Origin: a bacterium
Lineage (GTDB): Bacteria > Patescibacteriota > Minisyncoccia > UBA6257 > WO2-44-18
Reading direction: 5' to 3'
DNA: 64,000 nt
NCBI GenBank assembly: GCA_030646995.1
Contig: JAUSKF010000005.1
Span: 75,323-139,322 of the forward strand
The stretch's first letter is position 1, and each line of letters begins with the position of its first letter. The translations under genes were made by a program, and so were the position numbers. Below are positions 3,280-64,000 of this stretch, in pieces. The notes beneath the pieces are model-generated. The model saw only the letters and a list, made by a program, of their open reading frames with translations. It did no database searches and had not been told where the DNA came from.

Positions 3280-3894
3280 ATGACTAACGACAAAAGAGAA
3301 ATAAGAAACGATTATTTGATACCGACAGTCATTGAGCGCGTCCCGGGAGGCGAGCGAGCTTTTGATATTTACTCCAAGCTATTGAAAGAGCGCATTATTT
3401 TCTTGGGCGGTCAGATTAATGACGGCTTGGCTAATGTAGTCATTGCCCAGCTTTTGCACTTGGAGCATGAAGATCCGAAGAAAGATATTAAGCTTTATAT
3501 CAACAGCCCGGGAGGTTCGGTGACTGCCGGTTTGGCAATCTACGACACTATGCAATACGTGAAGCCCGACGTTTCCACGATTTGTGTTGGTATGGCGGCT
3601 TCCATGGGGGCAGTTTTGCTGGCGGCCGGAAAAAAGGGAAAGCGTATTTCTTTGCCTAATTCGGAAATAATGTTGCATCAGGTGATGGGAGGCGCTGAAG
3701 GCCAAGCCGTGGAGGTAGAGATTGCCGCTAAGCATATTTTGAAGATTAAGGATCGCTTGAATCACATTCTCGCCAAGCATACCGGTCAGACATTGGCGAA
3801 GATTGAAAAAGACACCGACAGAGATTATTTCATGAGTGCGGAAGAAGCGAAGGCTTACGGGGTAGTAGATGAGATAATTAAGAGCAAGAAATAA
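3280..3894 (+). CDS. clpP: ATP-dependent Clp protease proteolytic subunit
   Basis: Strong ClpP signature: [12 protein letters not shown], the catalytic region MAASMGA, and the expected length. Confidence 0.95.
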
Positions 3895-21435: not shown

Positions 21436-21840
21436 TTACCAGCCAAAGTAGTTTTGGATGCTGTAGAATCCGGGACCGGCTGTAGCTAGGACCAAAAGCG
21501 AAGCGAGTAAAACCAAATCAAGCTCATATCCGTTGATTAGTTTCATTCCTTGTTTCTTTTTCCAAAGCGCGGCAACCGACATATTGATGGCGAGCAGAAT
21601 TCCGATGATGGGCAAGTAAATTCCTAACAAAACCGCTAATCCGCCAAAAACTTCTACAAAGGCGACTATCGTGCCCCAAAAAGCGCCCGGTTTAAAACCC
21701 ATCATTCCGAAATTGATAGCGTTTTGTTTAAGATCCTTAATCTTCGGCCAGCCGTGAGCCAGAAATATGGCGGCAATTACTATGCGAAGCGCGAGTAAGG
21801 CCCAGTCGGTGAATAATGGAAACAATGAAATAGTGTTCAT
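21436..21840 (-). CDS. DoxX family membrane protein
   Basis: Four TM helices with a DoxX-like N-terminus (LALRIVIAAIFLAHGWPKI). Confidence 0.75.
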   Translation of the reverse strand: MNTISLFPLFTDWALLALRIVIAAIFLAHGWPKIKDLKQNAINFGMMGFKPGAFWGTIVAFVEVFGGLAVLLGIYLPIIGILLAINMSVAALWKKKQGMKLINGYELDLVLLASLLVLATAGPGFYSIQNYFGW

Positions 21841-22310: not shown

Positions 22311-23432
22311 ATGAAAATTTTAGCGATAGAAACATCTTGTGATGAGACTGCGATGGCCTTGGTGGATTGCAAGGGCAACCCACTATTGAAAAACCGCTCC
22401 GCCGGCTGGCGGATTAAAGTTTTGGAAAATATTGTTTCTTCGCAGATTGCTATTCATCGCCCATTCGGCGGCGTAGTTCCGAATTTGGCAAAGCGCGAGC
22501 ATATAAAAAATCTCCCAAAAATTTACCAGTCGCTAGTCGCTAGTCACAAGTCGCTAAAGTTTGACCTAATCGCAGTTACCGTTGGTCCGGGTCTGGAGCC
22601 GGCTTTGTGGGCGGGAATTGAATTTGCGAAAAGTTTAGCGAAAGAAACCGGCAAGCCGTTGGTTGGCGGAAATCATATGGAGGGACATCTTTTTTCTAAT
22701 TGGCTGCCGCATAGCGTCATTGCGAGTGCGGCGAAGCAATCTAACAAAAATTTAAGTAAGATTGCCACGACCCCTTCGTGGTCTCGCAATGACAAGATTA
22801 AATTCCCGGCAATCGCGCTCGTGGTCAGTGGCGGACACACGATGGTCATCAAAATGGATTCTTTAAAGAAATGGAAAAATCTTGGCGAGACTCGCGATGA
22901 TGCTGCCGGTGAAGCTTTCGATAAAGTTGCGCGCTTGCTTGGCCTTCAGTATCCGGGCGGACCGGAAGTTGAGAGGCTGGCGAAAAATGGAAATCCGAAA
23001 GCGGTAAATTTTCCGAGGCCGATGTTGAATCCGCCAGCTGGCGGAAAAAATTATGAATTTAGCTTTTCCGGATTGAAGACTTCAGTTCTATATTATTTGC
23101 GAGATCATCCATTTGTCGTCAGCCGTCAGTCATTAGTTGCCGATGTCGCTGCAAGCTTCCAGCAAGCCGTTATCGATACACTGGTTGGAAAAACTATGCG
23201 CGCCGCGGAAGAGTTTGGCGCGCAATCAGTTTTGCTTTCCGGCGGGGTGGCGGCGAATAAGAGATTAAGAGAAATTATGAAATTAGAAACTGAGAAATTG
23301 GGGCGGGAATTTTTTGTGCCGGATTTTCAATACAATACCGATAACGCGGTGATGATTGCCGCCGCCGCCTACATTGCCAAATTGCGCGGGAAAAAATATC
23401 CGATGCGCGCCAACTCGAACCTTAGCTTGTAA
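22311..23432 (+). CDS. tsaD: tRNA N6-adenosine threonylcarbamoyltransferase TsaD/Kae1
   Basis: MKILAIETSCDETA N-terminus and the HMEGH metal-binding motif. Carries in-frame repeat insertions. Confidence 0.9.
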   Translation: MKILAIETSCDETAMALVDCKGNPLLKNRSAGWRIKVLENIVSSQIAIHRPFGGVVPNLAKREHIKNLPKIYQSLVASHKSLKFDLIAVTVGPGLEPALWAGIEFAKSLAKETGKPLVGGNHMEGHLFSNWLPHSVIASAAKQSNKNLSKIATTPSWSRNDKIKFPAIALVVSGGHTMVIKMDSLKKWKNLGETRDDAAGEAFDKVARLLGLQYPGGPEVERLAKNGNPKAVNFPRPMLNPPAGGKNYEFSFSGLKTSVLYYLRDHPFVVSRQSLVADVAASFQQAVIDTLVGKTMRAAEEFGAQSVLLSGGVAANKRLREIMKLETEKLGREFFVPDFQYNTDNAVMIAAAAYIAKLRGKKYPMRANSNLSL

Positions 23433-24175: not shown

Positions 24176-24219
24176 TTGCCAATTTTCTCAATTTCTAATT
24201 TCTCAATTTCTAACTTATA

Positions 24220-26355
24220 ATGATTCCAATGTCTGAAGAGCTGCCAAAGGCCTACGACCCGAAAGCCACCGAAGACCGCATTTATAAAATGTGGGAGGAC
24301 GGCGGGTATTTTAAGCCAGCGACTAGCGACTCGCGACTAGCGACTGGGAAAACTTACGCCATCCATTTGCCACCGCCGAACGTGACGGGTTCTTTGCATA
24401 TGGGTCACGCACTCAACGCGACCATCTCCGACATTTTAATTCGCTATCATCGGATGCGTGGCTATGAAACAGTTTGGTTTCCGGGCACCGATCACGCCGG
24501 TATCGCTACGCAAAGCGTGGTTGAAAAGAATTTAAAAAAAGAAGGCATTAGCCGCTGGGATTTGGGTCGCGAAAAGTTTATTGAAAAAGTTTGGGAGTGG
24601 AGAAAACAATATGGAGATATTATTATCAGTCAGTTAAAAAAACTCGGCGCTTCCGCGGACTGGTCGCGGACCCGTTTCACGATGGACCTCGAATATGCCG
24701 GCTGGGTAAAAAAAGTTTTTATTCATTATTTCGAAAAAGATTTAATTTATCGCGGCAAGCGAGTGGTTAGTTGGTGTACCGCTTGTCAGACTTCTTTGTC
24801 GGATTTGGAAATTGAATATAAAGAAGAGAAAACAAAATTGTGGCAAATTAAGTACCCACTGACTGACGACAAAGGACAAACGACTAGCGACTTCATAATC
24901 GTTGCGACGACTCGGCCGGAAACGATGCTGGGCGATTCGGCGGTTGCCGTGAACCCGAAAGATAAGCGTTATGAAAATTTAGTTGGCAAAAAAGTTTTGT
25001 TGCCGATCCAGAATCGCGAGATTCCGATTGTCGCGGACGAAAAAATTGATATGGCTTTCGGGACGGGCGCGGTGAAGATCACGCCGGCGCATGATCTGCT
25101 GGATGCTGAAATAGGGGAGCGACATAAGCTGCCTTTTGTTCCGGTAATCAACGGAATAGGGAAAATGACCGCCGAGGCCGGAAAAGATTTTGAAGGACTG
25201 AAGATCGCTGAGGCGCGCGAGAGGGTGGTGGCGGAGTTGGAAAAACTTGGCCTGATAGCTAAGACCGAGGACTACACTCATAACTTAGCAATTTGTTACC
25301 GGAGCGCCACACCCATTGAACCGCTTTTAAGCGACCAGTGGTTTTTGAAGATGAAAGATCTTGCCGCGACGGCATTGGAAACCGTGCAGTCAGGGAAAAC
25401 CAAAATTATTCCGGAGAATTTTTCTAAGCCTTATATTTCTTGGCTGGAGAATATAAAAGATTGGTGTATCTCCCGGCAAATTTGGTGGGGGCATCAGCTT
25501 CCGGTTTATTTTTGCAAAACTGATCCATTGAAGTTTGTCGTTTCGGAAGAAAAGCCTGCAAAATGCTCGGAATGTGGAAATTGCGAGATGGAGCAATCTC
25601 AAGACGTTTTGGATACCTGGTTTTCTTCCGCGCTTTGGCCATTCGCCGGGCTTTCCGAGGAAGATCAAAAGAAATTTTATCCTTCGAGTGTTTTAATCAC
25701 CGCCCGCGATATTATCAATCTTTGGGTCGGGCGGATGATCTTTTCGGGAATGGAATTTATGGGTGAGACTCCTTTCCCGGATGTTTTGATCCACGGCACA
25801 ATTCTCACCAAAGATGGCAAGCGTATGTCTAAAAGCCTAGGAACCGGCATTGACCCAATCGGTTTGATAGATAAGTACGGCGCCGACGCGACCCGGTTTG
25901 GCATAATTTGGCAGGCGATGGGCAATCAGGACATTCACTGGGACGAAACCGCCCTAGCTGGCGGCAAGAAGTTTGCTAACAAGCTATGGAATATCGCCCG
26001 GTATATTCATGGCGTAGGTATTGTTCCGAGAAATTTAGATGTTCAACGCGTTGAACATGTTGAAGACAAGGAAATTTTGGAAAAACTGGAAATTTTGAAG
26101 AAAGAAGTGGAAAAGGGGACCCAGGAGTATGATTTCGGACAAACTCTGCACAAGATTTACGACTTCGTCTGGCACGATTTAGCTGATAAATACATAGAAA
26201 CCTCAAAAGATCGCACCGATGAAAATGTTAAACTGATATTAAGCGGCCTCCTGATGGACGTTTTGAAGATATTGCACCCGTTTATGCCGTTCATCACCGA
26301 AGAGCTCTATCAAAAGCTCTTTGCTAAGGATTCCGCCCTGATTGCCGCGGAATAA
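24220..26355 (+). CDS. valS: valyl-tRNA synthetase (short form)
   Basis: HMGHALN (HIGH), the CP1 editing domain and KMSKS. Lacks the long C-terminal coiled-coil. Contains an in-frame (TAGCGAC)n insertion. Confidence 0.92.
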   Translation: MIPMSEELPKAYDPKATEDRIYKMWEDGGYFKPATSDSRLATGKTYAIHLPPPNVTGSLHMGHALNATISDILIRYHRMRGYETVWFPGTDHAGIATQSVVEKNLKKEGISRWDLGREKFIEKVWEWRKQYGDIIISQLKKLGASADWSRTRFTMDLEYAGWVKKVFIHYFEKDLIYRGKRVVSWCTACQTSLSDLEIEYKEEKTKLWQIKYPLTDDKGQTTSDFIIVATTRPETMLGDSAVAVNPKDKRYENLVGKKVLLPIQNREIPIVADEKIDMAFGTGAVKITPAHDLLDAEIGERHKLPFVPVINGIGKMTAEAGKDFEGLKIAEARERVVAELEKLGLIAKTEDYTHNLAICYRSATPIEPLLSDQWFLKMKDLAATALETVQSGKTKIIPENFSKPYISWLENIKDWCISRQIWWGHQLPVYFCKTDPLKFVVSEEKPAKCSECGNCEMEQSQDVLDTWFSSALWPFAGLSEEDQKKFYPSSVLITARDIINLWVGRMIFSGMEFMGETPFPDVLIHGTILTKDGKRMSKSLGTGIDPIGLIDKYGADATRFGIIWQAMGNQDIHWDETALAGGKKFANKLWNIARYIHGVGIVPRNLDVQRVEHVEDKEILEKLEILKKEVEKGTQEYDFGQTLHKIYDFVWHDLADKYIETSKDRTDENVKLILSGLLMDVLKILHPFMPFITEELYQKLFAKDSALIAAE

Positions 26356-33170: not shown

Positions 33171-34685
33171 ATGCCGACACCAAAAGCAAAAACAGGAAAT
33201 GATCTGATGGATAAGCTTCTTAGCTTGTGCAAAAGGAGAGGTTTTATTTTTCCGGGCTCGGAAATTTACGGCGGCTTAGCTAACTCTTGGGACTACGGCC
33301 CGCTTGGCGCTGAATTAAAAAAGAATATTAAAGACGAATGGTGGAATCGCTTTGTCCGCCAGCGTACCGATGTAGTTGGAATTGATGCCGCTTTGATGAT
33401 GAACCCGAAGGTTTGGGAGGCGAGTGGCCACGTGGCCGGTTTTTCCGATCCGTTGGTGGAGTGCAAAAAATGCCATGAGCGTTTCCGCGCTGACGCTCTC
33501 GAAATTTCGAAATCCGATGTCAAAATGTCGAAATCTCCTGTCGAAATGTCGAAATCTGATGTCAAAATGTCGAAATCTCCTGTCGAAATCTCGAAATCTC
33601 GAAATGTCATTCCCTGCCCGTCTTGTGGTGGTGAGCTGATGGAGGCCAAGCAATTTAACCTTATGTTCAAAACGAACATCGGCCCGACCGAAGAAAAGGG
33701 AAGTGCGGTTTATCTCCGCCCGGAAACGGCGCAGGCGATGTTTGTGGATTTTAAAAATGTATTAGACACCACGCGTAAGCGTCTGCCGTTCGGTATCGCC
33801 CAGATGGGCAAGGCTTTCCGAAATGAAATTACTCCCGGCAATTTTATTTTTCGCACCCGTGAATTTGAGCAGATGGAAATTGAATATTTCGTAAAAGAAT
33901 CCGAATGGGAAAAGCATTTTGAGAATTGGTTAGGCGAAATGAAGGCCTGGCTGGAACACTTGGGAGTTTCCGAAAAAAATCTGCACTATGCCGAGATTCC
34001 CGACGGGGAGCGCGCTCATTATTCCAAGCGCACCGTGGATATTGAATATGAATATCCTTTTGGTCGCAAAGAGCTTTACGGTTTGGCTTACCGCGGGAAC
34101 TTTGATCTTACCCAGCATGAGAAATTCAGCGGACAGGATTTGCGCTACACCGACCCGAATCCGCCGGCTGGCGGACCGAAGGAGAAGTTCTTGCCGCACG
34201 TCATTGAGCCGACCTGGGGCGTGGATCGTTCGGTTTTGGTGGCGATGCTAGAGGCGTACCATGAAGAAAAAGTAGAAAGTTCCGCCAAAGGCGGATCCGC
34301 CTCCGGCGGAAAAAGTGAAAAGTTAAAAGTGAAAAGTGAGGGAGAGGAAGGGGAGGACATTCGGGTAGTGATGCGTTTTCCGAAGTGGCTGGCTCCGGTG
34401 AAAGTAGCGATTTTGCCGCTTTCCAAAAAAGAAGAATTGGCGAAAGTTGCCAAACCCCTCTATGAAGAATTAGCCAAAAAGTTTGTCTGCGAATACGACG
34501 AAACCCAGAGCATCGGCAAGCGTTATCGCCGCCAAGACGAGATCGGCACGCCTTATTGCGTGACGGTGGATTTTGATTCGCTCGAGGACAAAGCCGTTAC
34601 TGTCCGCGACCGCGACACGATGGAGCAGGACAGGATCAAAATTTCCGAGCTTGTGGATTACTTAGGAAAAAGTTTAGAGAAATAA
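33171..34685 (+). CDS. glyQS: glycyl-tRNA synthetase (dimeric, class II)
   Basis: RRGFIFPGSEIYGGLANSWDYGPLGAELKKNIKDEWW is the GlyRS N-terminal signature. Has class II motifs and a C-terminal anticodon-binding domain. Contains a 2x14-aa tandem repeat insertion. Confidence 0.88.
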   Translation: MPTPKAKTGNDLMDKLLSLCKRRGFIFPGSEIYGGLANSWDYGPLGAELKKNIKDEWWNRFVRQRTDVVGIDAALMMNPKVWEASGHVAGFSDPLVECKKCHERFRADALEISKSDVKMSKSPVEMSKSDVKMSKSPVEISKSRNVIPCPSCGGELMEAKQFNLMFKTNIGPTEEKGSAVYLRPETAQAMFVDFKNVLDTTRKRLPFGIAQMGKAFRNEITPGNFIFRTREFEQMEIEYFVKESEWEKHFENWLGEMKAWLEHLGVSEKNLHYAEIPDGERAHYSKRTVDIEYEYPFGRKELYGLAYRGNFDLTQHEKFSGQDLRYTDPNPPAGGPKEKFLPHVIEPTWGVDRSVLVAMLEAYHEEKVESSAKGGSASGGKSEKLKVKSEGEEGEDIRVVMRFPKWLAPVKVAILPLSKKEELAKVAKPLYEELAKKFVCEYDETQSIGKRYRRQDEIGTPYCVTVDFDSLEDKAVTVRDRDTMEQDRIKISELVDYLGKSLEK

Positions 34686-36688: not shown

Positions 36689-37717
36689 TTGTTAAAAATG
36701 GATCAGAAAGCAGTCTCAATCAGTTGGGGTAGCTTGTGGAAGGTCGTTATGATGCTTTTGCTTGTTGTCACCCTGTATGTCGCTCGCGATATTTTAATCG
36801 CGTTGTTTTTGGCTATCATAATTTCTTCCGCCTTAGACCCGATAGTTACTTGGATGGAAAAACGCCGCATTCCTCGCTTGTTGGGCACCCTCGCTATTTA
36901 TATCGTATTAATTTTTATGATCGCTCTTTTGGCGTATGCCGTTGTTCCGATAGCCCTTTCCGAGTTGAATGTGCTTTTGGGTAGCTTAAGCCAGTATTCC
37001 GGCACGCTATTTGATTTCATTGATACCTCCGGATTTATTGACTCTGTTAACCAGGCGCTTGGTAAAATTACCAATTTGTTGCTGAGTGGCAGTACTTCGG
37101 TGTTGGAAATCGGCACCAAGTTCTTGGGTGGCCTGACCGCTACTGTTTCAGTCTTCGTGCTCTCTTTCTATCTTACTGTCGGCAAGGACGGCGCAGAGAA
37201 GTTTTTGCTGACCATCCTGCCTTCGGTGTATGAAAGTAAAACCGTGCTTTTGTATCGCCGGATTAAGAAAAAAATCGGCAATTGGCTGGCTGGGCAGGTG
37301 GTTTTGAGCTTGGCTGTAGGTTTACTGGTATTTCTAGGACTCTGGATTCTAGGGGTCAAATATAGCCTCATTTTGGGCATTTTAGCCGGTATCTTCGAGC
37401 TTATTCCTTATGTCGGCCCTATCTTTAGCGGAAGCTTGGCAGTCCTGGTGGCTCTCACAGATTCCGCTCCGCTTGGATTTTATGTGTTGATTCTATTTAT
37501 TATTATTCAGCAGTTAGAAAACAACGTGCTTGTCCCTGCTGTCACCAACTTAACTACGGCGCTTCAGCCGGTAGTGATTTTGATTGCTCTATTGATTGGG
37601 GCGAAAGTTTTTGGTTTCCTTGGCCTTGTCTTGGCTGTCCCGTCGGCGGTGTTGCTGCAGGAGTTCTTGGATGACTGGTCGGAATCAAAGGCTAGGCGAA
37701 GAGGGTTGGGCCTTTAG
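36689..37717 (+). CDS. AI-2E family transporter (PerM/UPF0118)
   Basis: Eight TM helices and the conserved ELIPYVGP region. Confidence 0.78.
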   Translation: MLKMDQKAVSISWGSLWKVVMMLLLVVTLYVARDILIALFLAIIISSALDPIVTWMEKRRIPRLLGTLAIYIVLIFMIALLAYAVVPIALSELNVLLGSLSQYSGTLFDFIDTSGFIDSVNQALGKITNLLLSGSTSVLEIGTKFLGGLTATVSVFVLSFYLTVGKDGAEKFLLTILPSVYESKTVLLYRRIKKKIGNWLAGQVVLSLAVGLLVFLGLWILGVKYSLILGILAGIFELIPYVGPIFSGSLAVLVALTDSAPLGFYVLILFIIIQQLENNVLVPAVTNLTTALQPVVILIALLIGAKVFGFLGLVLAVPSAVLLQEFLDDWSESKARRRGLGL

Positions 37718-37721
37718 GCGA

Positions 37722-37811
37722 GTAGTCGCTAATAATGCGAATTTTGGCCAATAATGCTAATATTTATTCGCATTATTAATTCTTCCATTTGCATTATTCG
37801 CGATTACTTCA
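37722..37811. repeat. MITE-like AATAATGCGAAT element (copy 1)
   Basis: AGTAGTCGCTAATAATGCGAAT ... ATTCGCATTATT ... GCATTATTCGCGATTACT: terminal inverted repeats of the same family as 46839-46950 and 63668-63720. Confidence 0.55.
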
Positions 37812-45014: not shown

Positions 45015-46838
45015 ATGTGCGGAATAGCGGGCTACATAGGGAAAAAGGAGGGACTGCCGATTGTTTTCGGCAATCTCAAAAAAATGGAGTATCGGGGCTA
45101 CGACTCTGCGGGCGTAGCCTTTTTCGTTAATCGTAAAGGAAATTTTGATATTGAAGTAATTAAGCGTCCCGGAAAGATAAATATTTTAGAAAAGGATTTG
45201 CTAGGCGAGCGATCTTTGCCGGCAACTGCCGCTATCGCGCATAGCCGTTGGGCGACGCACGGTGTTCCTAATGAAGCGAATGCTCATCCTCACTCCGACT
45301 GCAAAAAAGAAATATTTTTAATTCACAACGGTATTATTGAAAACTATTCCGAATTGAAGGCGGTACTTATGAAAAAGGGGCATCACTTTCATTCCCAGAC
45401 TGACACTGAAGTATTCCCGCATTTGATTGAAGAAGAATTGAAGTTGGAGAAAAGTTTTGAGGCAGCTTTTGAAAAAAGCTTGAAAAAAATTGTGGGCGCT
45501 TACGCATTTGCTGCAATTTATAAAAACGAGCCTTCTAAGTTGTTCATTGCCCGACTGGGCAGCCCATTGGTGGTGGGGGTGGGAAAGGGAGAGTATTTTG
45601 TGGCTTCTGATCCGACCGCGCTAGCGGGGTTAGTAAAAAAAGTTATTTATCTGAAAGACGGTCAGCGTGGAGTACTCTCGCTTGCCGGAATCAAGATCGG
45701 GCCGGCTCGGCCGAAGATAGAGAGATTGGAGATGAATATTGAACAAGCCCAGAAAGGCAGCTTCCCGCATTTTATGATGAAGGAAATATTCGAAGGCCCG
45801 GAAGTATTGCAATCGGCATTGCGTGGCCGGCTGTCGGCGAGTCGGGGGCTTGTGAAGTTGGGTGGTCTAGGGAGTGTCGCTAAAAAATTAAAGAAAATTA
45901 AAAAAATAGATATTATTTCCTGCGGCACCTCCTATTATTCGGGAATGGTGGGAGAGTATCTTTTTGAAGAACTGGCAGATTTGTCGGCGGAAGTTTTACT
46001 GGCTTCCGAATATCGCTATCGCAAACACCCGATTAATAAAAGCTCCGCCGCTCTGTTTATTTCTCAATCAGGAGAAACGGCAGATACTTTGGCCGCCTTA
46101 AAGAAGGCCAATGGCCACAACTTAATGACCCTGGGAATCGTGAATGTGGTGGGCTCCAGCATTGCCCGTGATACGGTAGCCGGAGTTTATAATCACGCTG
46201 GGCCGGAGATTGGAGTGGCCTCCACCAAGGCCTTTTTATCTCAACTAGGCGTACTGACTCTGATGGCACTCTATTTATCGGGGAAGCGAAGTGGTTTGAA
46301 TAAAGAAGTAATGAAGGAGCTTTCGGTTTTAGCCGGGAAGATGAAGGAAGTTTTGAAGCAAAGTGAAAAAATAAAAGAATTGGCGAAAAAATATCTTAAA
46401 TACAATAATTTTCTTTATTTGGGTCGCGGACACAACTATCCGGCGGCTTTGGAAGGAGCCCTGAAGATTAAAGAGATTGCTTATGTCCACGCCGAGGGTT
46501 ACGCCGGCGGAGAGATGAAGCACGGACCGATTGCTTTGATCGATAAAAACTTTCCGACCATCGCTCTAGTGACCGAGAATCGGGTTTACGAAAAAATGAT
46601 TTCTAACCTGCAGGAAATAAAAGCCCGTTCCGGACCGATTCTTGCCATAGCAACCGTGGGTGATAAAAAGATTGGCAAAATAGCTGATGACGTAATTTAT
46701 GTTCCACGCACTGCGGAGCAGCTGGAGCCAATGCTAAATATCGTTCCGCTCCAGCTTTTTGCCTATCATTTTGGTGTATTGCGGGGGCATGACGTGGATA
46801 AACCTAGGAATCTTGCGAAAAGCGTGACTGTTGAGTAA
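45015..46838 (+). CDS. glmS: glutamine--fructose-6-phosphate aminotransferase
   Basis: MCGIAGYIG N-terminal nucleophile Cys, a GATase-2 domain and two SIS domains. Confidence 0.93.
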   Translation: MCGIAGYIGKKEGLPIVFGNLKKMEYRGYDSAGVAFFVNRKGNFDIEVIKRPGKINILEKDLLGERSLPATAAIAHSRWATHGVPNEANAHPHSDCKKEIFLIHNGIIENYSELKAVLMKKGHHFHSQTDTEVFPHLIEEELKLEKSFEAAFEKSLKKIVGAYAFAAIYKNEPSKLFIARLGSPLVVGVGKGEYFVASDPTALAGLVKKVIYLKDGQRGVLSLAGIKIGPARPKIERLEMNIEQAQKGSFPHFMMKEIFEGPEVLQSALRGRLSASRGLVKLGGLGSVAKKLKKIKKIDIISCGTSYYSGMVGEYLFEELADLSAEVLLASEYRYRKHPINKSSAALFISQSGETADTLAALKKANGHNLMTLGIVNVVGSSIARDTVAGVYNHAGPEIGVASTKAFLSQLGVLTLMALYLSGKRSGLNKEVMKELSVLAGKMKEVLKQSEKIKELAKKYLKYNNFLYLGRGHNYPAALEGALKIKEIAYVHAEGYAGGEMKHGPIALIDKNFPTIALVTENRVYEKMISNLQEIKARSGPILAIATVGDKKIGKIADDVIYVPRTAEQLEPMLNIVPLQLFAYHFGVLRGHDVDKPRNLAKSVTVE

Positions 46839-46950
46839 TCGCGAATAATGCCAATTTTAAACTTTAATATTGCGAATAAAAACGTGGAGCAGATGTAGGC
46901 GGACAAATTTGCATTATTTGCCAAAATTCGTATTATTAGCGAACACTTTA
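46839..46950. repeat. MITE-like AATAATGCGAAT element (copy 2)
   Basis: Begins AGTAATCGCGAATAATGCCAATTTT. Ends AATTCGTATTATTAGCGAAC, an inverted copy of the first terminus. Confidence 0.55.
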
Positions 46951-47097
46951 TGAAGTACCTATTTCCTATAATTTTCCTTACCTCGGCGGTATTTTTTGCT
47001 TTCGCAGCCGTAAAATACGGTCCATCTGCGGTAGAAACAACCACCAGAGTGAGCGCCAAAGCGGTTACCTCTAAGCCGGTAGCCAGCTTTATAAATT

Positions 47098-48138
47098 TTA
47101 TTTTCTCTCGGTAAGCTTCACCGCTACAGCAAAGGATTTTTTGCCCCGTAACACTTTTAGATTCATCACTCCGCCCACCTCCTTCTCTTCGAGGATGTCT
47201 TGAATGGTGCGGTCTGTAGTAATTTTTATTCCGTCGCATTCGAGTACGATATCTTTTTCTTTCAAGCCAGCCTTGTGAGCTGGGCTACCCGGTATAATCG
47301 CTTGTGTGTGTGGCTCTTGGCCAACTACCATTGCTCCGTAGTCAACGGCCAACTTCATTCGGGATTTCATATTTTCGTCTACGTTTATATAACGTAAACC
47401 AAGCAGCGGGCGCTTGATGTGGCCGAATTTTTTCAAATCAGCCAAATCCCGCTCCGCGTATTTTATCGGTATGGCGAAGCCGAGGCTTTGGGCTCCAAAC
47501 ACAATCGCGGAATTGATGCCGATAGCTTCTCCGCTCATATTCACCAGCGGCCCGCCGGAATTGCCTGGATTGATGGCGGCATCGGTTTGGATAAGTCCTC
47601 GAAGCTCTTGTGGGGCGACCATGGGGGCGGTGGCGGCGCGAATCGAGCGAGCAAGGCCGGAAATAATCCCGCTAGAGACTGTATTTTTAAACATTCCCAA
47701 AGCGTTGCCGATAGCGAGTACGCTTTCACCCAAGTCCAAATTTGAAGAATTGCCGAGTTTTACTATTGGTAAGTTTTTGGCACTGATTTTCAGAATTGCT
47801 ATATCATCCACCGGATCGCGGGAGAGTACCTCGGCCTTATATTTTTTGTTATCGTCGGCGATTATTGTGTATTCCGCCTTCGGGTCAGCTACCACGTGTT
47901 TATTGGTTAGGATTATTCCTTCCGGGCTGACAATAAAACCGGATCCACCACCTATTTTCACCATTCCACGGGAATCTATCTCTTCAGGCGGAATGTTTAA
48001 GTGAGGATGACCATACGGCATAAACGGAAGTACTTCCGGAGGAATTTCTTTCTCCAAATCCTCCAAACTTTTGGAAATTACAATTGATACGACCGCGGGC
48101 ATTACTTTTTTAATCGTTTCTACAATTTGAGATTTCAT
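47098..48138 (-). CDS. htrA: HtrA/DegP-family serine protease with PDZ domain
   Basis: Trypsin-like catalytic domain (GNSGGPL) and a C-terminal PDZ domain. Confidence 0.9.
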   Translation of the reverse strand: MKSQIVETIKKVMPAVVSIVISKSLEDLEKEIPPEVLPFMPYGHPHLNIPPEEIDSRGMVKIGGGSGFIVSPEGIILTNKHVVADPKAEYTIIADDNKKYKAEVLSRDPVDDIAILKISAKNLPIVKLGNSSNLDLGESVLAIGNALGMFKNTVSSGIISGLARSIRAATAPMVAPQELRGLIQTDAAINPGNSGGPLVNMSGEAIGINSAIVFGAQSLGFAIPIKYAERDLADLKKFGHIKRPLLGLRYINVDENMKSRMKLAVDYGAMVVGQEPHTQAIIPGSPAHKAGLKEKDIVLECDGIKITTDRTIQDILEEKEVGGVMNLKVLRGKKSFAVAVKLTERK

Positions 48139-48148
48139 TGGTTAATTA

Positions 48149-48222
48149 TACCATTCCATTTAATTTCTATAAGTCTGGTACGTGTACCATTCTATTTTAT
48201 TTATATAAGTCTGGTACTCGTA
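48149..48222. promoter_or_regulatory. tandem 36-bp repeat in htrA upstream region
   Basis: Two copies of TACCATTC(C/T)ATTT..ATTT(C/A)TATAAGTCTGGTAC. Each has GTACCA...TGGTAC inverted ends. Confidence 0.5.
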
Positions 48223-48229
48223 ACAAAAA

Positions 48230-48901
48230 TTACGGAATAATGGTTGGCTTGCGTCGGTGCTTAATAAATTCAAGCACAGTCGGCACTAATGACACTATGA
48301 TTATCCCTATGATTACTAGGCCGAAATTTTCTTTAATAATCGGAATGTTTCCGAAGAAGTAGCCGGCGAGCGAAAAAGCCATGACCCATAAAATTCCTCC
48401 GGCCACATTGTAGGCAAGAAATTTCAGATAATTCATATGACCGATTCCGGCCACAAAAGGAGCAAAGGTGCGGATAATCGGGATAAAGCGGGCAATGACG
48501 ATGGTCTTTGCCCCATGAATTTCATAGAAATCATAGGCGCGGCGCAAATAATCTTTATTAAAAAATAAACTTTTTTCTTTAGAGAAAACCAGTGGCCCCG
48601 CTTTCCGGCCAATCCAATAATTTACGGTGTCGCCCAAAATAGCGGCGGTAGCAAGGAGGAGGATTAGGAGGCCGATATCAATACTTCCCAGCGCGGCAAT
48701 CGCTCCGGCAGCGAAAAGCAGAGAGTCTCCGGGCAGAAAAGGGGTGGCGACTATACCGGTTTCGAGAAAGATCACCAAGGTTAAGATACCGTAAGTCCAA
48801 ATACCGTAATTTTGGACGACGGTATTTAGATGCTCGTCGAGGTTCAAGAATAAATCGATTAATTGGCTTAGGATATCCATTGAGGGAATTTTAACATGCA
48901 T
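48230..48901 (-). CDS. DedA family membrane protein
   Basis: DedA/VTT-domain signature LETGIVATPFLPGDSLLFAAG in a multi-TM protein. Confidence 0.8.
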   Translation of the reverse strand: MHVKIPSMDILSQLIDLFLNLDEHLNTVVQNYGIWTYGILTLVIFLETGIVATPFLPGDSLLFAAGAIAALGSIDIGLLILLLATAAILGDTVNYWIGRKAGPLVFSKEKSLFFNKDYLRRAYDFYEIHGAKTIVIARFIPIIRTFAPFVAGIGHMNYLKFLAYNVAGGILWVMAFSLAGYFFGNIPIIKENFGLVIIGIIIVSLVPTVLEFIKHRRKPTIIP

Positions 48902-48940
48902 ACCAGACTTTATATAATGTAATAGAATGGTACAAATGAT
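48901..48940. promoter_or_regulatory. third (inverted) copy of the 36-bp repeat, in the dedA upstream region
   Basis: ATACCAGACTTTATATAATGTAATAGAATGGTAC is the reverse complement of the htrA-upstream unit. Overlaps a TATATA -10-like box. Confidence 0.5.
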
Positions 48941-48951
48941 AAACTTATTTT

Positions 48952-49773
48952 ATGTTTGGGTTTTGGAAAAAATCAGCAATTGTGGCAGCGGCCCTGGCTT
49001 TGGTTCCGTTGGCGGCCAATGCGGCGATTTTACGTAATTTGAAGCAGGGCGATCGGGGAGAAGACGTGCGGGAATTGCAGACAATTTTGAACAAGAGCCC
49101 CGACACTCGGGTCGCCTTGATTGGCCCCGGTTCCTCCGGAAACGAAACCGCCTATTTTGGCATCCTGACAAAAGTAGCAGTGATCAAATTCCAGGAAAAG
49201 TATGCCGCTGATATTTTGACTCCGGTGGGATTGAAGAGCGGCACCGGGTTTGTTGGCGGGCAGACGAGGATTCTTTTGCTACAACTGGCGGCTGGAAAGA
49301 CGGCTCCACTGGCGTCTCCTTCGACGAGCCCAGGGCAAGCGACACCCCAGGCCGTAAAGACCCCGCCACCGAAAATTGTTTCTATTTCCCCCGGCGTCGT
49401 GACCGCCAGCACCCGCGAGCTTACGATAACTGGCGAAAATTTTACGCCGACCGGTAACGCCGTAGTTGTTTCGAGCGAGCTGCCCGGCGCGTTCATTGAT
49501 CTTCCGTCCGCTGACGGCAAGGTAATAAAATTTAATTTTCACTTCGCGGCGGCCGATGCTTTGAAAAAGCAATTAGCCCCGATGATCGCTTCCGGTAGAT
49601 ACGCGGCCATTTCGGCATCCTTTACTAAAAATATCCAGGATCGGACCAGCCAGACCGGCAACGCCCAGATACCGGTTCAAGTTGAAGTCCGAAACTCCAA
49701 CGGGGCGAGCGCGCAATTTCAGATATTAGTTGATCTCACCGAGATTCTTAAAGAAATCGGCCCGCAATATTGA
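48952..49773 (+). CDS. hypothetical secreted protein (PG-binding-like plus Ig/IPT-like)
   Basis: Signal peptide, a peptidoglycan-binding-like block (DVRELQTILNKSPD...FGILTKVAVIKFQ) and an IPT-like segment (PKIVSISPGVV...ITGENF). Confidence 0.5.
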   Translation: MFGFWKKSAIVAAALALVPLAANAAILRNLKQGDRGEDVRELQTILNKSPDTRVALIGPGSSGNETAYFGILTKVAVIKFQEKYAADILTPVGLKSGTGFVGGQTRILLLQLAAGKTAPLASPSTSPGQATPQAVKTPPPKIVSISPGVVTASTRELTITGENFTPTGNAVVVSSELPGAFIDLPSADGKVIKFNFHFAAADALKKQLAPMIASGRYAAISASFTKNIQDRTSQTGNAQIPVQVEVRNSNGASAQFQILVDLTEILKEIGPQY

Positions 49774-50280: not shown

Positions 50281-50943
50281 TTAAATGATATTCTTCTTGC
50301 CTATTATAGCGAGTACGGCCCTAATTTTCAAATATTTTCTTCTAAGACTCGTGGCGTGGTTTTTATAATATATCTTTGGCAACAATTTTAAAGATTCCGC
50401 TTTCGCATATTTTAGCTGATAGCACACACCCTTTTGGCCACGTCCGGTTACGTGGCCTTTGATATTCAATAATTCGTAAATTCGCTCACGCAGCCAGTTA
50501 ATGTGTTTTTTGCTTGCCGATACAAACTCGGTATAAAACATAAAACTGGACCTCCATCGGGGATCCCAGTAGGAATAGAATGTTCCGTCGCCATCAAAAT
50601 GTCCGCGTAAAAAATCAAAAAAGTATTGATTTGGTATTTCTAATGCGCTCATTACCTTCGACTTGTTCGCCATTAGTCCAATTTTTAATAAAAATCTATA
50701 GAAATTCACGTCACCAAACTGGATACGAAATGCCTTTTTACCAGTTTGCCCGGACGTTTTTTGTCCGATTTTATTTTTAATTCCTAGGCACCCCTTAAAA
50801 TTCTCTAGTTGTTCCTTGTCCTTGGAAGTTAGATCAAAGTGCCGGCTATCGGATGATAAATTGCCATCGGTGGTTAAAAGCCCGATTGCGTAGGCAAAGT
50901 TGGGCGACCATTCAAGTTTTATTTTGTTTTTCGGTAAGGCCAT
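50281..50943 (-). CDS. LAGLIDADG-family homing endonuclease (double-motif)
   Basis: Two LAGLIDADG blocks, AYAIGLLTTDGNLS and FLRGHFDGDGTF, at the typical spacing. Free-standing, with its stop 4 nt from tRNA-Leu(GAG). Confidence 0.82.
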   Translation of the reverse strand: MALPKNKIKLEWSPNFAYAIGLLTTDGNLSSDSRHFDLTSKDKEQLENFKGCLGIKNKIGQKTSGQTGKKAFRIQFGDVNFYRFLLKIGLMANKSKVMSALEIPNQYFFDFLRGHFDGDGTFYSYWDPRWRSSFMFYTEFVSASKKHINWLRERIYELLNIKGHVTGRGQKGVCYQLKYAKAESLKLLPKIYYKNHATSLRRKYLKIRAVLAIIGKKNII

Positions 50944-52634: not shown

Positions 52635-54632
52635 TTGTCGGATTGGAGAATGGTTATGGTCGCAGTTGTGGCACCGGGCATGAAATACATTGATATTCGC
52701 CCGCCAAAGCCTCGTCGGCGCCGGCCTACGGTTTATAAAGTGCCGGTTGATTTGCCGTATATACCAATCGCCAGAAGAGAACCTTCTGAAGAGCGACGGC
52801 CAAATTTAAAAGTTCCCCTTATCGGTACTTTAGCCGTGTTCTTGTCGGTGATAGTTTTTTTTGGGTTCAATCTGATGAAATTCAAAGAGCAGGCAGAGCA
52901 AACCGGCCCGGTAGTTTACAACAATTTCAAAGCCGGTGCGGCGGCGCTTTTCAATTTTGATCTTGGTTTAGCGAAAGAATCTTTTCAAAAAGCATCCGAT
53001 GATCTGGCAATGTTGAATGAGAAGACGCCGTTGAATACCGCGCCGGCGGTTTTGAATACTTTTTTGAAGATTAGCCAGACTTCGGTTGCTCTCAGCGCCG
53101 ACCTCGAGGATCTGAAGAAAAACGGCTTGGCTTTCATCATCAATAAACAGGGAGCCTTTTTGATAAAGAAATTGCATCATATTCAGGAATTGGTCGGGGA
53201 GATCGGAAAATTAGGCGACAAGCTGAAAAGCCAAGCGGCTAATCTTGGCTATAAGAGCGATGAAGAGTTCGCCGGACTGAATACTAAATTGGGCGAGGCT
53301 GATCAATTCTTGTCGGCATTTTTGAAATGGTTGGAGGCGCCGAAGAAGCAGCGTCTGGTGGTGTTGTTTCAGAATCCTTCGGAGATCCGCCCATCGGGGG
53401 GGTTTATCGGTAGTTACGCCATCGCCACCTTATTTCAGGGAAATCTTTTGGAACTAGAGACCCGCGACATCTATGATCCTGATGGCCAGTTGGATTTGAA
53501 GATTATTCCGCCGAAGGCATTACAGGGGGTAACGGATAAGTGGGGGGCGAGAGATTCCAATTGGTTTTTTGATTTCCCGATGTCGGCCAGAAAGGTGTTG
53601 GAATTTTTGGAAGCTTCAAAGATTTATAGCGAGCAGGGGATTCGTTTCAGTGGGGCGGTGGCGATTAATGTGGATGTGATGCAAGACTTAATTACCATTG
53701 TTGGGCCGTTTGAGTTGCCGGAATATGGCTTAACCATAAGCGACGATAATTTTTTAAAGGAGGTACAGCGGGAAGTAGAGTCTGGTAAAGATAAAGAAAA
53801 GGGCGAGCCGAAAAAAATTATCAAAACTTTGGCGCCGATGATTTTTATGGAAATTGCGAAATTAAGCGAAGCGCAAAAAGAGGATTTACTGAAAAAAATG
53901 GCGACGCGGCTGAAAAATAAAGATTTGATGGTGTATTTCAAAGACCCCGCGATTCAGCGGTACACTAAAGAACTGGGAATCGGTGGAGAAGTCATGGCTT
54001 TGCCGGAAGAGTTTACAGGAGAATACTTGGCGGTAGTGAACGCGAATATTGCGGGGGGTAAGAGCGATGCCTTAATCGAACAAGTGATTAAGTTTTCAAG
54101 CATTATTGATGAAGACGGCGACGCAAAGAATAATTTAACAGTGACTAGAAAGCACAATGGCGCCAATGAGAAAGATTGGTGGTACAAGGCCACTAATAAG
54201 AATTATCTACAGGCCTATGTTACTTCCGGGTCTATTTTAAAAAAGACTACCGGCGCTACTCCGCGGACCGTTGTGCCGGCCGTTGATTATGTAAAACAAG
54301 GATACGCCAAAGACCAGGACTTGGTGGCGTTAGAGAGTGGCGACTCTTTGGGCAGGGAAGTGTTGGCTAGTTGGTTGAATGTGAAGGCTGGAGATTCGGG
54401 TAAATTGTCTTTTGATTATCAGCGTTTGGGAGTGGTGGATTTGTCTAAAACTTCCCTCTATCAATTTATTTTTGAAAAGCAATCCGGAGTCGGTGGAAGA
54501 TTAGAAGTTAATTTACGAGCGCCGGAGGGTTTTCAGTGGCGGGAGAGTGGCGCTCGGGATTTTCAATATTCTAGCGACGATCTACCGGCGAGAATTGTTT
54601 TAGATCTAAATCTGGAGGCCGCTTTGCGCTAA
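52635..54632 (+). CDS. large hypothetical membrane-anchored protein
   Basis: 665-aa ORF with an N-terminal TM segment. No catalytic motif recognised. The start is uncertain. Confidence 0.45.
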   Translation: MSDWRMVMVAVVAPGMKYIDIRPPKPRRRRPTVYKVPVDLPYIPIARREPSEERRPNLKVPLIGTLAVFLSVIVFFGFNLMKFKEQAEQTGPVVYNNFKAGAAALFNFDLGLAKESFQKASDDLAMLNEKTPLNTAPAVLNTFLKISQTSVALSADLEDLKKNGLAFIINKQGAFLIKKLHHIQELVGEIGKLGDKLKSQAANLGYKSDEEFAGLNTKLGEADQFLSAFLKWLEAPKKQRLVVLFQNPSEIRPSGGFIGSYAIATLFQGNLLELETRDIYDPDGQLDLKIIPPKALQGVTDKWGARDSNWFFDFPMSARKVLEFLEASKIYSEQGIRFSGAVAINVDVMQDLITIVGPFELPEYGLTISDDNFLKEVQREVESGKDKEKGEPKKIIKTLAPMIFMEIAKLSEAQKEDLLKKMATRLKNKDLMVYFKDPAIQRYTKELGIGGEVMALPEEFTGEYLAVVNANIAGGKSDALIEQVIKFSSIIDEDGDAKNNLTVTRKHNGANEKDWWYKATNKNYLQAYVTSGSILKKTTGATPRTVVPAVDYVKQGYAKDQDLVALESGDSLGREVLASWLNVKAGDSGKLSFDYQRLGVVDLSKTSLYQFIFEKQSGVGGRLEVNLRAPEGFQWRESGARDFQYSSDDLPARIVLDLNLEAALR

Positions 54633-62829: not shown

Positions 62830-63667
62830 GAGCGTTGGTTAGCCGAGCCACAATTCCGTGCAGTTCCTCGGGTGAGTAAAAAGTAATAATTAATTTTCCG
62901 GTTTCTCCGGAGCGATCAACTTTTACAGGGGTGCCTAGTGCGGACTCCAATTCTCTTTGTAGTGTTTCAGTTTCGGGATCTATAGAAAGGGGAGCGGGAA
63001 GTATCCCGTCCATCGTCGGTGATTCCACGCGCTTGATTCTTTGAATGCGAGATTTTAATTCGCGTACACTCAAATTACTGCGCAATAAATCTTCCATCAG
63101 CATTTGTTGTTGCCCTGGATCATCTACGGTCAGCAATAATCTGCCCTGGCTTTCGCTTATCTGATTTCTGGAAATAGCATCTTGAACTGCAGTCGGCAGG
63201 CCGAGTAGGCGCATAGTGTTAGCAATTACTTCTCGGCTTTTTCCAATGCGGGCGGCGATTTCACGCTGGGTCATCGCGAACTCATCTTGCAATCGGGAAT
63301 AGGCGCGGGCAGATTCAATCGGATTTAAATCGGCGCGTTGCACGTTTTCCAAAACCGCCAGCTCTAAGCGTTCCTTCTCTAGGGTGACGCTGCGGATGAT
63401 GGCGGGGATTCTTTCCAAACCGAGCATGCGTGAGGCTTGCCATCTTCGCTCGCCGGCGATGAGTTGATAGGCTACCTCCGTGCCGAGCTCGCTCTCCGTT
63501 TCAACTTTCGTGACGGTAATCGGCTGGAGAATGCCGAACTCGCGAATGGAATTTGCGAGGTTTTTTAATTCTTCAGGATCAAAATTTCTCCGCGGCTGCT
63601 GCGGGTTAGGGGAGATTTTGTCTACCTCTATAAGAAAGACCGGTCCTTGAATCGGGGGATTGTCCAT
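62783..63667 (-). CDS. parB: chromosome partitioning protein ParB/Spo0J
   Basis: ParB box (GERRWQASRMLG) and a downstream HTH region. Confidence 0.9.
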   Translation of the reverse strand: MDNPPIQGPVFLIEVDKISPNPQQPRRNFDPEELKNLANSIREFGILQPITVTKVETESELGTEVAYQLIAGERRWQASRMLGLERIPAIIRSVTLEKERLELAVLENVQRADLNPIESARAYSRLQDEFAMTQREIAARIGKSREVIANTMRLLGLPTAVQDAISRNQISESQGRLLLTVDDPGQQQMLMEDLLRSNLSVRELKSRIQRIKRVESPTMDGILPAPLSIDPETETLQRELESALGTPVKVDRSGETGKLIITFYSPEELHGIVARLTNAPKLDESLPPSPPSVF

Positions 63668-63720
63668 GGAGTAATCGCTAATATACGAATTTAAAATTAA
63701 ATAATGCGAATGTTCGACAA
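63668..63720. repeat. MITE-like AATAATGCGAAT element (copy 3, partial)
   Basis: AGTAATCGCTAATATACGAATTT...AAATAATGCGAATG immediately upstream of parB. Confidence 0.45.
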
Positions 63721-63737
63721 TTTAATCTTAACACAAA

Positions 63738-63755
63738 GTGCTCGGGGAGAGACTT
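63738..63755. repeat. 17-nt direct duplicate of the tRNA-Leu(CAA) 3' end
   Basis: GTGCTCGGGGAGAGACT is identical to 63926-63942. The two copies flank about 170 bp containing an 11-bp inverted repeat (GTAGCACCCCG / CGGGGTGCTAC). Confidence 0.5.
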
Positions 63756-63926
63756 TCGCTTCGTTTTTAGGCTGCCGCCTAAAACTCGCCGAACTACTTT
63801 CGTAGCACCCCGACCCCCGCTTAAGAAACCAAAGGTTTCTTACCCTTCGGATCTTCCTGGACGGGGTGCTACTCGTTCGAGTCTCAGGCACAAAATAAAT
63901 CAGCCCGTTTGGGCTGTTTCATTTTG

Positions 63927-64000
63927 TGCTCGGGGAGAGACTCGAACTCTCATGATGTTGCCATCGGTGGATTTTGAGTCCACTGCGTCTGCCATTCCGC
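63927..64000 (-). tRNA. tRNA-Leu (anticodon CAA), 5' end beyond the window
   Basis: Reverse complement shows a D-arm, anticodon stem GTGGA/TCCAC with loop CTCAAAA, a long variable arm (GATG-GCAA-CATC), T-loop TTCGAGT and 3' CCCGAGC-A. A hairpin terminator lies at 63885-63925. Confidence 0.75.

Follow-up and report, generated by a model that had tools for sequence, protein, structure and literature searches.

The three inverted-repeat sites in the window, that is, in the whole 64,000-nucleotide stretch of DNA analysed here, can be read, with a probability of about 0.58, as gene-less, non-autonomous copies, resembling MITEs and REPINs, of a cassette that carries a GxxExxY gene, and they would also serve as gene-boundary DNA. 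Because the same arms enclose a nuclease-like gene in related genomes, the window elements seem to be a mobile cassette in the form that lacks its gene. The architecture of the arms is conserved across a large clade, GxxExxY is the only gene nested between outward-pointing arms, this gene has decayed in place at one site, and orthologous sites are filled in some genomes and empty in others.

All three sites described in an earlier note on this DNA are present in the window sequence, but their coordinates were a few bases off, element 2 beginning at 46833 and not at 46839. The flanking genes are confirmed as those for an AI-2E transporter and metG, glmS, and parB. All three elements are built from the 12-bp unit ATTCGCATTATT, the complement of which is AATAATGCGAAT, and the ends of the elements are formed by a 24-bp terminus, ATTCGCATTATT[C/A]GCGATTACTC[C/T], in which the outer unit is extended as (G)AGTARTCGCK..., in agreement with the start that had been given for each copy. 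Elements 1 and 2 contain four units each, two facing left and two facing right, and element 3 is a single arm of two units, confirming that the site at parB is partial. The features are as follows.

37715-37717: stop codon of the AI-2E transporter (perM-like) gene, left of element 1
37720..37810, no strand: element 1, complete four-unit inverted element, fills the spacer between the perM-like gene and metG
37721..37742, minus strand: left terminal 22-mer of element 1, AGTAGTCGCTAATAATGCGAAT on the plus strand
37750..37761, minus strand: left inner unit of element 1, AATAATGCTAAT on the plus strand
37766..37777, plus strand: right inner unit of element 1, ATTCGCATTATT
37787..37808, plus strand: right terminal 22-mer of element 1, ATTTGCATTATTCGCGATTACT, ending 3 nt before the metG ATG
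37812: metG ATG, right of element 1
46833..46949, no strand: element 2, complete inverted element of four units around a 29-nt centre, located between glmS and an ORF of 54 codons
46834..46855, minus strand: left terminal 22-mer of element 2, AGTAATCGCGAATAATGCCAAT on the plus strand, contains the glmS stop codon
46836-46838: glmS stop codon TAA, within AGTAAT of the left terminus of element 2
46866..46877, minus strand: left inner unit of element 2, AATATTGCGAAT on the plus strand
46907..46918, plus strand: right inner unit of element 2, ATTTGCATTATT
46926..46947, plus strand: right terminal 22-mer of element 2, ATTCGTATTATTAGCGAACACT, degenerate, ending 2 nt before the ATG at 46950
46950..47114, plus strand: 54-codon ORF, MKYLFPIIFLTSAVFF..., starting directly after element 2
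63665-63667, complement: parB ATG
63668..63711, minus strand: element 3, half element with one arm and two units, its terminus adjoining the parB start codon
63670..63690, minus strand: terminal unit of element 3 with a one-base deletion, AGTAATCGCTAATATACGAAT on the plus strand
63700..63711, minus strand: inner unit of element 3, AATAATGCGAAT on the plus strand

The start codons of metG, parB and the ORF at 46950 thus lie 2-3 nt past the element termini. This ORF, which has no match in Pfam, may encode a small membrane protein. Elements 1 and 2 align beyond the 12-nt core, the left half of element 1 matching the right half of element 2 over 41 nt at 88% identity. A search with an 18-mer allowing up to three mismatches gives four matches in the window against 0.10 expected, a number reached in none of 100 shuffles; the fourth match, at 54035, lies in coding DNA and is a chance match, not an element. 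Nine 12-mer units with at most one mismatch are found in the 64-kb window, all of them within the three sites and all intergenic. An HMM search finds no GxxExxY gene within the window.

Other repeats and unusual stretches also occur in the window. The region 63738-63926, between the parB half element and a tRNA (63927-64000, minus strand), begins with the 16-mer GTGCTCGGGGAGAGAC, which is identical to that at 63928 at the 3' end of this tRNA; ARAGORN and Rfam find nothing in this region, which may be a tRNA-like remnant or a novel RNA. Around a DedA/VTT gene (48230-48901, minus strand), positions 48146-48220 and 48901-48948 hold a 36-mer in two tandem copies and a third, inverted one (TACCAGACTTATA...ATGGTA), placed upstream of an HtrA-like gene, the DedA gene and a gene at 48952 on the plus strand, an arrangement suggestive of an operator and promoter used in common. 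At 33496-33608, a 21-nt sequence is repeated five times in tandem inside a class-II aminoacyl-tRNA synthetase ORF (33171-34685), so that an essential enzyme contains an inserted repeat of 7 residues. Units of AATTTCTnAATTTCT form a tandem array at 24179-24215, just before the gene at 24220, and units of this sequence are arrayed in inverted orientation in the perM/metG spacer of the closest relative (L121, about 312-417, which are the 106 nt upstream of its metG), indicating that several short-unit repeat families coexist in the lineage. The AATTTCT-type arms at 23270 and 24179 were considered as a second cassette, but they are not an element pair because the left arm lies within the coding region of TsaD.

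An exact scan for AGTARTCGCKAATAATGCNAAT, with one genome per species, finds the 22-bp terminus core in at least 120 stretches from 58 assemblies. Among the matches listed, all but one are from metagenome-assembled genomes of Patescibacteria, labelled, among others, as Wolfe-, Lipton-, Harrison- and Colwellbacteria and Paceibacteria, and the single match in Colwellia equals the number expected by chance and is not a member of the family. The clade that shares the family also includes Nealsonbacteria. The 22-mer is thus a nearly clade-specific marker (119 of the 120 matches listed). The G+C content of the genomes carrying it ranges from about 36 to 59%, and the density of units differs strongly between genomes. 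These loci share no further DNA similarity with the window, and none of them comes from the genome of the window. The copies that had been described as a three-copy family are therefore members of a true repeat family, but one that is not local: it is conserved throughout a large clade and is found repeatedly in front of the same core genes.

In an alignment of 141 instances, conservation reaches the upstream unit about 20 nt away and two bases past TACT, and the latter defines the terminus as a 24-mer. An arm consists of two 12-bp direct-repeat units, 19-22 bp apart, with the outer unit extended to the 24-bp terminus, and two arms placed back to back make one element. Neither the 12-mer nor the 24-mer is palindromic. 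The related loci contain 73 inverted terminal pairs, whose outer length varies between 55 and 164 bp; many solo arms and tandem arrays occur besides. The spacers between units show an identity of 0.41 within assemblies against 0.32 between assemblies, whereas the units are nearly invariant. Recurrent spacer types are seen in only one assembly, JAUSKB; elsewhere, copies in the same genome mostly share only the units. The diverged spacers beside undiverged units indicate that the units are under selection, either by the protein or by the host, and the pattern suggests selection over a long period more than recent copying.

A search of the kind used for insertion sequences, for outward-pointing arms 400-4000 bp apart, gives six cases, all of 434-466 bp and each enclosing one GxxExxY gene, and a seventh locus found at a looser threshold (L117) also encloses such a gene. 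No other gene and no transposase-type gene is ever enclosed by outward arm pairs. The opposite arm configuration brackets 19 ordinary gene segments. Conversely, arms flank 12 of the 13 GxxExxY genes examined. Cognate arms are present in all six homologues that were fetched independently, by protein identity, in addition to the seven above (L201, L203, L205, L208, L210 and L211). These genes lie in at least six neighbourhoods, namely pilB/pilC, rplJ/rplL, MFS/polX, ftsX/response regulator, clpP/dehydrogenase and prfB/ftsE. The repeats thus occur as inverted doublets with a spacer and also flank the associated gene, with terminal arms outside and inner units as the inner flanks of the gene. The GxxExxY start codon is often the ATG within a unit (AATA-ATG-CGA-AT), so that the N-termini read MQI/MRI... 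or ...ANNAN, and the N-terminus is a translated unit in 57 of 120 homologues. The arms of divergent genes differ: a GxxExxY gene of Nealsonbacteria that is 54% identical has arms in the dialect GCGAATAATAAGCGAAT, a paralogue at L071 has yet other arms, and assembly MHJJ contains two paralogues with different arms, the comparison covering pieces of 8-20 kb from each genome.

The enclosed gene encodes a protein of about 130 amino acids, the only matches of which are TIGR04256 (GxxExxY) and PF13366 (PDDEXK_3). Glu-42, Asp-81, Glu-91 and Lys-93 are invariant in 34 sequences and make up the PD-(D/E)XK pattern. No sequence relative has a solved structure; an AlphaFold model has a mean pLDDT of 88, and the nearest solved folds are Cas4 SSO0001 and lambda exonuclease, with TM scores of about 0.5. 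The GxxExxY/PDDEXK_3 family is large, annotated as of unknown function and marked by many horizontal transfers (PMC3424549).

The site between pilB and pilC is occupied differently in different genomes. In two of them (L203 and L021) it contains the full GxxExxY gene. In a third (L090), the pilB of which is 75% identical to that of L203, a 164-bp element retains the last 27 codons of the gene (E = 4.5e-10), and in a fourth (L017) the site is empty, with a spacer of 21 nt. L090 is the only case in which a remnant of the gene is found in an element centre, and nothing of it is found in the centres of the window elements. Yet another genome (L075) has an 86-nt pilB/pilC spacer (about 3399-3483) with an unrelated repeat family of inverted CTACGGACTAC / GTAGTCTGTAG units. 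The order of perM and metG is kept in 32 relatives, in which the spacer of the window is absent or different: the gap is -11 to +9 nt in 11 of them. In L121, the closest relative, whose perM is 87% identical, the two genes are 106 nt apart and the spacer contains another inverted repeat, based on AATTTCTAATT. Therefore, element 1 has the character of an insertion and not of a signal ancestral to metG. Insertion polymorphism is thus seen at the orthologous pilB/pilC and perM/metG sites, the relatives compared being distant ones, and some sites seem to have been inherited vertically, namely ftsX/response regulator (L057 and L210), MFS/polX (L058 and L201) and pilB/pilC (L203, L021 and L090). The earlier suggestion of a non-autonomous miniature element is borne out in these respects by the gene-bearing form with the same arms, the deletion derivative at an orthologous site and the empty metG site.

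Two further arrangements are seen upstream of metG in relatives. Nine genomes (L135, L137, L139, L142, L159, L160, L170, L181 and L194) have a perM/metG spacer of 477-540 nt containing a small gene on the opposite strand, which is not GxxExxY according to an HMM search. Eight others (L133, L134, L148, L154, L173, L175, L178 and L197) have ATGATAAAAT followed by a hairpin, AAAGGAGG...CCTCCTTTT, 60-70 nt before metG; judging from the sequence, the hairpin would mask the ribosome-binding site and would be part of a conserved metG leader of some kind.

The termini lie directly against start or stop codons and, in some loci, against the 5' end of 16S rRNA. A long ORF starts within 12 nt of 93 of the 235 terminal units, with a peak at 2-3 nt, and 76 adjoin a stop codon, although these classes rest on crude ORF calls that contain errors, and several of the calls as divergent are spurious. 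Another 14 of the 235 lie within tandem arrays. In 59 of the 93 start cases, 2-3 nt separate the terminus from the start codon, and the stop codon is the TAA or TAG inside AGTARTC in 21 of the 76 stop-adjoining termini. In L001 and L120, 1-2 nt separate the 22-mer from the start of the 16S rRNA model, and L004 and L105 show the same arrangement. Genes that recur behind a terminus in different assemblies are those for SecY (three times), MreB (three times), SSB (twice), 16S rRNA (four times) and ABC ATPases, and this recurrence of core genes could reflect a regulon, insertions inherited from long ago or a preference for certain targets. In one locus (L051), the element is the entire 110-nt spacer between the divergent thyA and folA genes, and so both promoters must lie within it; the other divergent pairs mostly have a spurious ORF on one side, and only thyA/folA is verified. 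On the outward side of the element upstream of 16S rRNA, AAATTGGGACAACTAnAAAAATT(T)TGA is conserved in five assemblies (L001, L002, L004, L105 and L120; for example, L120 4775-4812).

These positions raise the possibility that the elements are a host cis-regulatory module, in which a DNA-binding protein or RNA polymerase holoenzyme specific to the clade would use the units as operators and promoters to control a regulon of core genes; GxxExxY would then be one more regulated gene, or the regulator encoded amid its own binding sites, or a nuclease of the homing type that takes these conserved sites as its targets. The invariance of the units beside variable spacers, the distance of 19-22 bp between units, which is about two helical turns, the tight spacing to start codons, the recurrence of the same core genes in two to four assemblies each, and the thyA/folA spacer are all in favour of such a module. 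So are the leaderless look of many window genes and a single sigma-70-like match (9/12) in element 2, TTTGCA-17-TATTAT, the TTTGCA of which comes from the right inner unit at 46907..46918; the consensus reads TTCGCA-18/19-CATTAT on one strand and AATAAT on the other. As to the leaderless look, many gene starts in the window lack a Shine-Dalgarno sequence and have, 5-8 nt before the ATG, a TATAAT-like hexamer that is often preceded by TGn (for example, 47098-48138, 21436-21840 and 50281-50943 on the minus strand, and 31428 and 35018). AGGAGG precedes a few window genes (4140, 9778 and 27635), and the 3' end of 16S rRNA at L120 6385-6402 is GGATCATTTAAAC, without a CCTCC anti-Shine-Dalgarno sequence.

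However, arms face gene ends and gene starts at similar frequencies and with identical conservation, solo arms face starts and ends about equally, and elements also occur between convergent genes (L047 and L085). A directional leaderless promoter reading from TACT into ATG is rejected since stop codons adjoin the termini equally tightly and end-facing arms are equally conserved. Together with the lack of bias of the solo arms, this indicates that the 2-3 nt spacing reflects packing. A promoter in the opposite direction with AATAAT as the -10 hexamer finds little support either: a long ORF follows directly after only 5 of 363 units, and tandem duplications occur on either side, so that neither direction is favoured. 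A scan for sigma-70 promoters finds no canonical pair at metG, and 79 of 80 metG relatives (47-73% identity) lack the motif upstream, so that conservation upstream of metG is absent; in relatives with the same gene order the spacer is empty or occupied by another repeat. The pilB/pilC site, which is full, decayed or empty depending on the genome, also argues against a regulatory module, which in addition leaves unexplained why GxxExxY is the only gene ever found inside an element. As a full account of the elements, such a module is therefore considered rather unlikely. The conserved regulatory module proposed in the earlier note survives in that the motif is clade-wide and recurs before the same core genes, and a promoter or operator role is probably part of the truth where an element is the only DNA before a core gene.

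The terminator that had been proposed as part of such a module is unsupported, because neither element 1 nor element 2 has a G+C-rich stem with a run of T. The arms could act at the RNA level in other ways as well, folding into a hairpin that stabilises a message or serves as an RNase III-type processing site separating messages, and the positions of the termini at the exact ends of coding regions and 16S rRNA would suit this. The predicted RNA fold of element 1 has an energy of -33.2 kcal/mol (z = -7.5), and that of element 2 has a z-score of -2.5; the good folding of element 1 is a consequence of the inverted repeat itself. The two arms of one element agree at the variable position 12 in only 16 of the 73 pairs against 31 expected, so that the variable positions are anticorrelated and not compensatory, and selection for a hairpin within the element is rejected. 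The identical 18-mers at 37791-37808 and 46834-46851 had hinted at a pairing between arms that bracket a gene, but such arms mismatch too, agreeing at position 12 in 6 of 19 cases. Since solo arms and tandem arrays cannot form a hairpin and no Rfam 15 covariance model matches at the gathering score, with only noise at E <= 10, a role at the RNA level is improbable.

A classical MITE origin is still less probable; in that case the elements would derive by internal deletion from an insertion sequence whose DDE or similar transposase moves them in trans. The inverted termini, the small size, the lack of coding capacity and the presence or absence of copies in different genomes agree with this, and of the classical MITE features the inverted termini stand. 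A uniform length, shared spacers and target-site duplications do not: direct repeats of 2-8 nt, sought at three offsets around the 73 pairs, are no more frequent than expected by chance. A gene-bearing form with the same termini does exist, and its gene encodes a PD-(D/E)XK-fold protein, not a recognised transposase. Furthermore, outward arms enclose only GxxExxY and never a transposase-type gene, and the terminus is kept across a very wide clade. Finally, a DNA-uptake signal that marks self DNA for the competence machinery, to which the clade-wide motif in either orientation, often in inverted pairs, and its presence at pilB/pilC might point, is hardly credible, given that the units are strictly intergenic and only nine in the 64 kb of the window, that their density differs strongly between genomes and that the enclosed gene would be left unexplained.

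The preferred reading, gene-less copies of a GxxExxY cassette, would involve a nuclease-fold protein that binds or cuts the arms and thereby spreads them; the mobility of the arms is inferred from the sequence comparisons. The protein would recognise the arm units and cut at or near them, and arm pairs, with or without the gene, would be copied or moved to other intergenic spacers, as are MITEs or the REPINs of RAYT systems. Copies may persist because the arms are compatible with the expression of the genes that they adjoin and sometimes provide signals for it; candidates for such signals within the arms are the stop codon (TAA or TAG in AGTARTC), GGAG 12 nt before the ATG of the unit, and -10-like hexamers on both strands. 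In many relatives perM and metG overlap or touch; with element 1 placed between them in the window, metG needs read-through or a promoter in the element, and parB and the small ORF after glmS would likewise depend on read-through or a promoter inside the element. It is tentatively proposed, by analogy and with somewhat less than even odds, that GxxExxY (PF13366) is a minimal PD-(D/E)XK nuclease that recognises the 12-bp units and spreads or maintains arm pairs in lineage-specific dialects, and that the host has co-opted the arms as the whole boundary and promoter DNA of core genes, including that of 16S rRNA.

The defined 24-bp terminus provides a concrete candidate substrate for the GxxExxY/PDDEXK_3 family. 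If the protein mobilises or maintains the arms, it would be a second, unrelated enzyme class with the REPIN-RAYT type of lifestyle, in which a single gene accompanies gene-less repeats. Since Patescibacteria cannot be grown alone, a complete spacer before 16S rRNA, secY, mreB or ssb is also a rare handle on how their genes are started and separated.

In the literature searched, itself incomplete, no description of the motif or its association with GxxExxY was found, and known systems share only some of its features. Free-standing homing endonuclease genes, such as seg and mob of T4-like phages, resemble GxxExxY in that a small nuclease-fold gene lies between conserved genes (here rplJ/rplL and pilB/pilC) with filled and empty alleles. 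Unlike them, GxxExxY always comes with two repeat arms, which occur without the gene by the dozen, and we know of no homing activity in the PDDEXK_3 family. Correia elements of Neisseria are MITEs that carry expression signals; like the elements here, they are intergenic, non-coding sequences of about 100 bp with terminal inverted repeats that lie near genes and can supply promoter elements. The present elements differ from them in having no target-site duplication and no uniform length, in having a form that bears a nuclease-fold gene, and in being spread over a clade instead of one genus; Correia elements have, to our knowledge, no known parent.

Marine Beggiatoaceae contain abundant intergenic direct repeats of the 7-nt sequence TAACTGA, arranged in tandem and suspected of a regulatory role (PMC4679880). 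These are also lineage-specific short units in intergenic arrays near gene starts, but they are described there without an inverted-arm architecture and without an enclosed gene. REPINs are doublets of REP sequences, and RAYT is a single-copy REP-associated tyrosine transposase (PMC3116915; PMC3337134; bioRxiv 10.1101/2022.05.22.493013). By analogy, REPINs with RAYT would be the closest counterpart of the present system, although the enzyme class and the arm design differ. In both, short extragenic repeats occur as inverted pairs with a spacer as well as singlets and arrays, a small gene is flanked by inverted copies of these repeats, copies without the gene are far more numerous than those with it, and some sites look vertically inherited. 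In contrast to REPIN-RAYT, the protein enclosed here has the PD-(D/E)XK fold and is not an HUH/Y1 (IS200/IS605-like) transposase; the arms are phased direct repeats of a non-palindromic 12-mer, whereas a REP forms a hairpin; the terminus is nearly unchanged over a far wider range of genomes; and the termini adjoin start and stop codons.
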